A stretch of DNA of 64,000 nucleotides from Escherichia coli. Lineage in GTDB: Bacteria > Pseudomonadota > Gammaproteobacteria > Enterobacterales > Enterobacteriaceae. Below are positions 26,149-26,335 of the stretch, piece after piece. Every line of letters starts with the position of its first letter. Within the stretch, counting starts at the first letter, position 1. A model generated the notes under the pieces. The model ran no database searches, had not been told where the DNA came from, and saw only the letters and a list, made by a program, of their open reading frames with translations. The translations under genes and the position numbers were made by a program. The stretch lies in the NCBI RefSeq assembly GCF_003334385.1, contig NZ_QOWN01000025.1; one strand, written 5' to 3'.

Positions 26149-26335
26149 GCCGGATGCGACGCTTGCCGCATCTTATCCAGCCTACGGGATTGCACATGTA
26201 GGGCGGATAAGGCGTTCACGCCGCATCCGCCAGTGGCGCGGTGCAATTGCCGGATGCGACGCTTGCCGCGTCTTATCCAGCCTACGGGATTGCACATGTA
26301 GGGCGGATAAGGCGTTTACGCCGCATCCGCCAATA
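26149..26335. repeat. BIME: two tandem ~100-bp units each carrying REP palindromes (eutG-eutH)
   Basis: gccggatgcgacgcttgccgc[a/g]tcttatccagcctacgggattgcacatgtagggcggataaggcgtt[c/t]acgccgcatccgcca repeated with period 100 bp starting at 26149 and 26249. Confidence 0.85.

Follow-up and report, generated by a model that had tools for sequence, protein, structure and literature searches.

The tandem repeat between eutG and eutH of Escherichia coli is REP178, a two-unit BIME-2 array that may act as modest REP punctuation in the eut operon

In Escherichia coli, the genes from eutS to eutR are transcribed as one polycistronic mRNA, and the eut pathway is relevant to gut colonisation and virulence signalling in pathogenic strains. 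The locus considered here raises the question of what a tandem palindromic repeat in the middle of this operon is and whether it affects the genes on either side of it. The window, i.e., the whole 64-kb stretch of E. coli DNA that was analysed and to which all positions below refer, had originally been predicted to carry two nearly identical 100-bp units with paired repetitive extragenic palindromic (REP) elements between eutG and eutH, elements of a kind that can stabilise mRNA or partially terminate transcription. Given its placement, the array would form part of the eutS-to-eutR message.

Both the units and their placement inside the operon were borne out. The array occupies positions 26148 to 26332 of the + strand, wholly inside the 216-nt spacer between eutG (alcohol dehydrogenase; 24959-26146, + strand, with its TAA stop codon at 26144-26146) and eutH (ethanolamine permease; 26363-27589, + strand), and fills most of that spacer up to the eutH leader; the flanking open reading frames (ORFs) are annotated as such in RefSeq records of identical or near-identical E. 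coli sequences. The predicted limits, 26149-26335, were right to within about 3 nt. A repeat search found direct copies of 88 nt each at 26145-26232 and 26245-26332, 100 nt apart and 97% identical, and Tandem Repeats Finder reported for 26148-26332 a period of 100, 1.9 copies, 97% matches, no indels, and a score of 356. Within the units, the palindromes stand in opposite orientation, in the order Z2, 12 nt, Y, 16 nt, Z2, 12 nt, and Y. The first Z2-type REP (26149-26185, + strand; 37 nt, ending in CTAC; 86.5% identity to the Z2 of REP325) is followed by the 12-nt tail-to-tail linker GGGATTGCACAT (26186-26197, + strand) and by the first Y-type REP (26198-26232, + strand; 35 nt, beginning with GTAG and carrying an AA/GC bulge; 91.4% identity to the REP325 Y). 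The head-to-head linker GTGGCGCGGTGCAATT (26233-26248, + strand) joins the two units, and the second unit repeats the arrangement with a CTAC-ended Z2-type REP (26249-26285, + strand; 89.2%), the same 12-nt linker (26286-26297, + strand), and a GTAG-first Y-type REP (26298-26332, + strand; 94.3%). Downstream lies a conserved eutH leader (26333-26362, + strand), with the Shine-Dalgarno sequence GGGAG at 26350-26354 and TAA stops in all three frames (26334, 26338, and 26345). When the window was scanned with the REP tail motif CTTATCCGGCCTAC, allowing up to two mismatches, 13 occurrences were found against 0.31 expected; 4 of these 13 belong to the array, which is the sole REP cluster within the eut operon. 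Other REP clusters in the window lie at about 12754-12786, 38138-38200, and 49064-49126.

We compared this spacer with that of E. coli K-12 MG1655, and every base was identical. The K-12 element REP178 spans MG1655 2568140-2568322 (Harris et al. 2026 preprint, supplement), which corresponds to 26148-26330 of the window, and the element itself shows no difference between the two; the name and coordinates are those of that supplement, REP features being absent from the RefSeq NC_000913 annotation used. The array is REP178, an ordinary E. coli repeat that is already known and catalogued and whose family has been well described. A literature search for eutG together with repetitive extragenic palindromic elements found none.

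K-12 does differ in the surrounding operon, where the CPZ-55 prophage lies between eutA and eutB. The window has no prophage there, and its eut operon is uninterrupted, with eutB directly after eutA (27586-29001 compared with MG1655). In addition, the window eutB differs from that of K-12 by one additional G. This gene (29001-30363) is frameshifted by the extra G in a G-run at about 29836-29840, where the window reads ccGGGGGaaaac as opposed to ccGGGGaaaac in almost every E. coli genome and in other Escherichia loci, and its 453 codons are split into ORFs at 29001-29897 and 29773-30363. The eutB region was 100% identical in 1 of the 5,242 genomes having it, strain SCU-104 (NZ_CP053284.1). The extra G may be a sequencing error in a homopolymer, or else eutB is a genuine pseudogene, in which case ethanolamine ammonia-lyase would be lost.

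To which class of REP mosaic does the array belong? In E. coli, REPs are imperfect palindromes of 29 to 37 nt (y, 35 nt; z1, 29 nt; z2, 37 nt) that carry a GTAG tetranucleotide and an AA/GC bulge and are defined by a REP and an inverted REP in tandem (PMC8266576). In the array, GTAG stands at 26198 and 26298 and CTAC at 26182 and 26282, and folds of Y on the + strand and of Z2 on the - strand place an AA/GC bulge, as a 2-by-2 internal loop, between a 7-bp outer stem and an inner stem of 4 to 5 bp. The 35-nt Y and 37-nt Z2 elements alternate in inverted orientation with short linkers, they are extragenic and just 3' of a gene, in the eutG-eutH spacer, and the unit is tandemly iterated with a copy number that varies between strains. 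No match to the IHF consensus WATCARNNNNTTR was found in 26140-26365, which makes the array a BIME-2 as opposed to a BIME-1. Altogether, the array displays every feature by which BIME-2 elements are recognised at the level of sequence, including GTAG and the bulge, the predicted determinants of recognition by gyrase and by the REP-associated transposase TnpA-REP.

Consistent with this assignment, the array matched the Rfam family RF02564 (naRNA4), which represents the Y-linker-Z2 unit of REP325; the match, at 26201-26282 (+ strand), comprises the Y of unit 1, the linker, and the Z2 of unit 2, and scored 71.8 bits against a gathering score of 59.5 over the full model (1-77). Such a match could mean that the Y-linker-Z2 segment is released as a nucleoid-associated small RNA, which would bind HU and bridge DNA cruciforms; transcription of about 80% of REPs, and condensation of DNA by naRNA4 acting with HU, have been reported (Qian et al. 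2015). We consider a role of this kind very unlikely at this locus, for the Rfam model in effect fits any Y-linker-Z2 pair, and a second naRNA4-type pair elsewhere in the window, at 1413-1489 (- strand), scores higher, at 92.7 bits. Moreover, the affinity for HU was found to be moderate with no stable ternary complex, while nucleoid volume was unaffected and no REP-REP contacts were seen (Harris et al. 2026 preprint), and the eut operon is silent unless induced. Further Rfam matches above threshold in the window, at 49070-49112, 63598-63723, and 63757-63908 (all on the - strand), comprise ES036/CssrF within another REP pair, an RtT element, and two tRNAs.

We then considered the structures that the array would form in the eut mRNA. 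In sense RNA, the Y hairpins of copies 1 and 2 each folded at -20.9 kcal/mol, with z scores of about -4 (-4.6 for copy 1), and the Z2 hairpin of copy 2 folded at -16.6 kcal/mol. The Z2 hairpin of copy 1, with its C.A mismatch and G>A change, reached -10.8 kcal/mol (z, -0.69), on a par with shuffled sequence. Pairing of a REP with the adjacent inverted REP was stronger (-47.9 kcal/mol for Y-linker-Z2 and -37.7 kcal/mol for Z2-linker-Y), and the entire spacer folded at -101.7 kcal/mol (z, -3.7). An alignment of 14 distinct Y-type REPs from the eutG-eutH spacer of Escherichia, Pseudocitrobacter, and Citrobacter, sequences that are mutually related, had 96.7% of its cells paired and 14 double changes, values attained in 0 of 500 shuffles; compensatory double changes were found at three stem positions (C-G/G-C, C-G/U-A, and C-G/U-A). 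The stem constraint may equally stem from recognition of the DNA by a transposase rather than from an RNA function.

The symmetry of the palindromes allows either strand to fold, a property compatible with an element that acts as DNA, i.e., a gyrase binding and cleavage site or a cruciform that relieves supercoiling in the middle of this 15-kb operon, with any RNA effects being incidental. BIME-2 arrays are reportedly targets of DNA gyrase. A role for BIME-2 in gyrase action has been proposed (Qian et al. 2015; PMC8266576), but Hi-C and nucleoid measurements gave no sign that REPs organise the chromosome (Harris et al. 2026 preprint), and we regard the DNA-level explanation as improbable.

Does the array, or the sequence around it, contain any other signal that could change expression at this point? 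A scan for terminators was negative over 26140-26362; downstream of the hairpins stand GGGAUU, AGUGGC, and AAUAAA, and because none of these is a U-tract, there is no intrinsic terminator. No sigma-70-like promoter that could serve as an internal eutH promoter was found in 25500-27000. Regarding Rho, the sense strand has a C/G ratio of 0.93 to 0.97 and the region is highly structured, and REP-associated Rho termination is known to depart from the C>G rule (Harris et al. 2026 preprint). Two in vitro Rho H-SELEX peaks lie at or near REP178, both antisense to eut (Harris et al. 2026 supplement): MG1655 2568056-2568201 (+), which is 26269-26414 (-) of the window, and MG1655 2568390-2568551 (+), which is 25919-26080 (-). 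These antisense peaks hint that the role of the region may lie more in stopping antisense transcription into eutG than in sense termination.

Of all sense-strand sites in the eut operon, the one most like a terminator lies in the eutM-eutN spacer (22314-22419), which is 106 nt long and free of REPs. This site, at 22321-22346, has a 10-bp stem with 6 GC pairs (-17.4 kcal/mol; z, -3.75) followed by UCUCUCCUUUUUCAUUUU. The gene eutM encodes the major shell protein and eutN the minor vertex protein, and in strain LF82 the RPKM across eutM-eutN goes from 177 to 62 when induced and from 55 to 5 when uninduced (PMC6379400). It is possible that 22321-22346 is a partial attenuator that sets the EutM:EutN ratio.

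An ORF of 66 codons (26147-26347) also spans the array; its ATG overlaps the eutG stop codon (TAAATG), and its end lies 15 nt short of the eutH start. Its presence and its end so near eutH are what a small protein gene would have in its favour, but it lacks a Shine-Dalgarno sequence, its peptide is translated REP sequence, and its length is not conserved: the corresponding ORF has 29 codons with one unit, 84 with three and five units (where it stops at GTAG), and 12 in O157. Each 100-nt unit shifts the frame, so the ORF has no conservation and was rejected as a gene; we would assign a coding role next to no probability. The repeat and terminator scans both flagged, in addition, the near-perfect palindrome CATCATGTACATCATGATG at 26380-26398, in eutH codons 6-12 (IIMYIMM). 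It is found in eutH of Buttiauxella, Hafnia, and Entomohabitans too and is therefore probably a by-product of the conserved peptide.

One feature overlooked in the original prediction is the distance between the array and the end of eutG: the gap between the stop codon and the first REP stem, at 26149, is 2 nt. According to the summary in PMC12306157, Liang, Rudd and Deutscher 2015 reported that a REP closer than 16 nt to a stop codon stalls ribosomes and reduces translation of the gene before it; the gap seen here is well within that limit. Because the first REP lies 2 nt past the stop codon, translation of EutG may drop through ribosome stalling. A translational brake of this type would operate by stalling of terminating ribosomes, followed by mRNA cleavage and trans-translation, and would lower EutG while leaving the other genes unaffected; it is compatible with the main explanation given below. 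The REP abuts the eutG stop codon in all Escherichia alleles seen, as a brake would need, but in the two-unit allele the hairpin concerned is the weak first Z2, whose folding energy resembles that of shuffled RNA. We find the brake, and likewise the proposed route from stalling to reduced EutG, conceivable yet rather unlikely.

A comparison of copy number among strains, which the original prediction had suggested, revealed that it is polymorphic, from 1 to 5 units. The array query had matches in all 5,426 complete E. coli genomes, since the typical genome carries related BIME-2 copies at about 9 places (median). Unit number was instead estimated from a rank-spread sample of 59 chromosomes, which is not a census and with which a 30-row sample agrees: 24 of the 59 had two units (about 41%), 19 one unit (32%), 4 three units (7%), and 5 at least four units (8%), while 4 were of the O157 type, 1 had BoxC, and 2 lacked the eut flanks. 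The allele sizes step by whole 100 bp, with spacers of 116 nt for one unit (e.g., locus L003), 216 nt for two (K-12, CFT073, and the window), 316 nt for three (strains B and C), and 515 to 516 nt for five (STEC388, MS1050, and FDAARGOS_1291), the most seen. The O157 lineage has a 99-nt spacer with one degenerate unit that lacks the 5' arm of Z2. Strains LF82, CFSAN018748, and XDL have a 169-nt spacer with an inverted pair of BoxC/TMECO triplex repeats and no BIME (locus L005, 1598-1766; LF82 locus L061, 43768-43936), an allele that exactly matches Table 1 of PMC4666352. One spacer of one species can thus hold two unrelated repeat families, BIME and BoxC.

Since alleles of 1, 2, 3, or 5 units, a degenerate unit, or BoxC are all found, no particular dose is required, and the range from a degenerate half-unit to five units or BoxC suggests that the constraint on the element is weak. 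These observations count in favour of a neutral passenger, i.e., a repeat, selfish or drifting, that settled in one of a small number of tolerant spacers and has no measurable effect on eut: copy number ranges freely between 1 and 5, the O157 copy has decayed by loss of the Z2 5' arm, LF82-like strains carry a BoxC pair in its place, and several Citrobacter species keep an intact operon with a spacer of 27 nt. On the other side, the intra-operonic array REP325 altered the relative expression of its flanking genes in experiments, as those of malE-malF and hisJ-hisQ reportedly did, and the stems are kept by compensatory change, though perhaps for transposase recognition and not for an RNA function. 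A neutral passenger is a reading to which we give real weight, though it falls short of being probable.

We extended the comparison to other species by extracting the spacer from one genome per species. In six Citrobacter genomes, the gap between eutG and eutH is just 27 nt, and it is 32 nt in Yokenella and a Pluralibacter MAG. Morganella, Buttiauxella, P. gergoviae, and one Klebsiella sp. have spacers of about 45 to 48 nt with a small GCCTG-loop-CAGGC hairpin, and Hafnia and Entomohabitans have spacers that read as about 32 to 38 nt without this hairpin. Y-linker-Z pairs of a different kind occupy the spacer of two further Citrobacter groups (119 and 123 nt), and their flanking junctions differ as well. 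Only one REP is present in Citrobacter sedlakii and in Salmonella diarizonae; in Klebsiella species, the spacer (170-216 nt) holds REPs of the Klebsiella type; and one uncultured Pseudocitrobacter has a Y-linker-Z pair of which the Y and linker are of the Escherichia type. The other Escherichia species share the same BIME, with 1 to more than 5 units in 116 to 578 nt. The eutH leader of about 27 nt forms a constant downstream boundary and is the whole eutG-eutH separation in several Citrobacter species. Given this constant leader and the lineage-specific repeats, we infer that the spacer was occupied several times, by each lineage's own repeat family.

Among the loci compared (L010-L060), Citrobacter by itself shows at least four spacer states: one of 27 nt without any repeat, one of 119 nt with a Y-linker-Z2-like pair, one of 123 nt in which the pair is Y-linker-Z1-like and the upstream junction differs, and one of 163 nt with three REPs. 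These states point to repeated gain, loss, or replacement at one site. The GCCTG-loop-CAGGC hairpin (loci L043-L047, L049, L055, and L056 in Morganella and Klebsiella sp., L036-L039 in Buttiauxella, and L045 in P. gergoviae) lies just upstream of the eutH Shine-Dalgarno sequence and has a constant stem with variable loops (CGCGA, TTCG, TACCA, and CTCGA). Structured elements of different origin fill exactly this spacer in different lineages. It is conceivable on this basis, though we hold it doubtful, that the eutG-eutH junction is a selected punctuation point and that the 1-to-5-unit polymorphism is a heritable dial on read-through into eutH-eutBC-eutR and hence on EutR autoinduction; if this were true, unit number would tune the EutR autoinduction loop.

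What effect on expression might be expected can be gauged from related arrays. In yjdMN, REP325, which is partly Rho-dependent, attenuates the downstream gene 8- to 10-fold and stabilises the upstream mRNA, and in a set of 146 tandem gene pairs that contain a REP, the upstream gene tends to be expressed more strongly, with a median log upstream/downstream ratio of 0.96 compared to -0.09 in controls (Harris et al. 2026 preprint). These results fit the original view that REP and BIME elements can stabilise mRNA or partially terminate transcription, a view that can be carried over to eut by analogy. In the same study, 2- and 4-hairpin fragments of REP325 showed no sensitivity to bicyclomycin, while the full six-unit array was sensitive (Harris et al. 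2026 preprint); the eut array has four hairpins, as opposed to the full REP325 array needed for the measured attenuation and partial Rho dependence.

Two published RNA-seq data sets cover the eut operon in other strains. The LF82 data were rejected as a test of BIME polarity, since the spacer of this strain holds the BoxC pair and not a BIME. The LF82 RPKM values, the only absolute expression figures per gene that were found, are 147 for eutJ, 168 for eutG, 514 for eutH, and 223 for eutA (PMC6379400), placing eutH mRNA about 3-fold above eutG mRNA with BoxC and no BIME in the spacer; therefore, the step can run in the opposite direction and needs no BIME. The LF82 values warn that the array is not the sole determinant of the eutG/eutH ratio. 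In EDL933, induction is slightly lower downstream (log2 of 3.87 to 3.42 and of 4.42 to 4.10; PMC6199705), but these data consist of fold-changes alone from a strain with the degenerate O157 unit, and they were set aside as uninterpretable for polarity.

We propose the following account of the array, with its action drawn from analogy with its relatives. It is a member of the repeat family recognised by E. coli TnpA-REP, and arrays of this kind expand and contract in whole 100-bp units; it occupies the sole sizeable REP-tolerant spacer of the eut operon, with the eutH start about 30 nt downstream. In the eut mRNA, it would form four local hairpins or two longer hairpins between a REP and its inverted neighbour. 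Such hairpins may block 3'-to-5' exonucleases, so that the eutS-eutG segment of the message would be mildly protected, and some read-through into eutH-eutR may be lost at the array. The effect in the two-unit allele is probably small because there are only four hairpins, the first of them weak, and no U-tract, and effect size may scale with unit number in other strains. The sense C/G ratio of about 1, the antisense placement of the Rho peaks, the insensitivity of the shorter REP325 pieces to bicyclomycin, and the spread of natural alleles likewise speak against a strong effect. Action as a stabiliser or partial terminator thus fits the REP literature and is probably weak. Altogether, we are confident, short of certainty, that the array of the window is REP178, a two-unit BIME-2, and that by analogy its action would be a modest, context-dependent form of generic REP punctuation.

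As it stands, the array is of little importance. The present analysis adds its exact anatomy, the links to REP178, REP325, and naRNA4, the proximity to the stop codon, the spectrum from 1 to 5 units, the BoxC alternative allele, and the repeated occupation of the spacer across genera. A modest use can be seen in the natural allelic series at one operon position (0, degenerate, 1, 2, 3, and 5 units, and BoxC), which suits studies of REP dose against read-through, upstream mRNA stability, and stop-proximal translational braking, in an operon whose own activator, EutR, is encoded in the downstream half.

Among known systems, the alternative allele is the least related: the BoxC/TMECO intrastrand-triplex repeats occupy the exact same spacer in some E. 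coli but form an unrelated repeat family (CCCTC...GGGAGAGGG...GGGTGAGGG) without REP hairpins. The BIME-1 elements (RIP/RIB), in which Y is joined to Z1 by an L linker with an IHF site, share with the array their Y REPs and mosaic organisation. The array is nonetheless distinct from BIME-1, as its partner is Z2 and not Z1, its linker is short, its unit is iterated, and the IHF site is absent.

Closer in setting are the intercistronic REPs of malE-malF and hisJ-hisQ, which are classic mRNA stabilisers. There, as in eut, REP hairpins lie between two cistrons of the same operon, and a block to 3' exonucleases with a higher upstream/downstream ratio has been proposed, with effects measured experimentally. 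The eut array, in contrast, is a four-REP BIME-2 that abuts a stop codon.

The closest counterpart is REP325, the model BIME-2 in yjdM-yjdN and the source of naRNA1-6. Like the eut array, it consists of Y and Z2 in alternating orientation with a 100-bp period, lies within an operon just past the upstream gene, and has the same strand orientation relative to the mRNA, and the Rfam naRNA4 model matches both alike. Individual REPs of the two arrays are 86 to 94% identical (Y, 91-94%; Z2, 86-89%), while identity over the whole unit is about 75%. They differ in unit number, 5.8 in REP325 compared to 2 in the array, and in their linkers, which are 17 and 13 nt in REP325 and 12 and 16 to 17 nt in the eut array.
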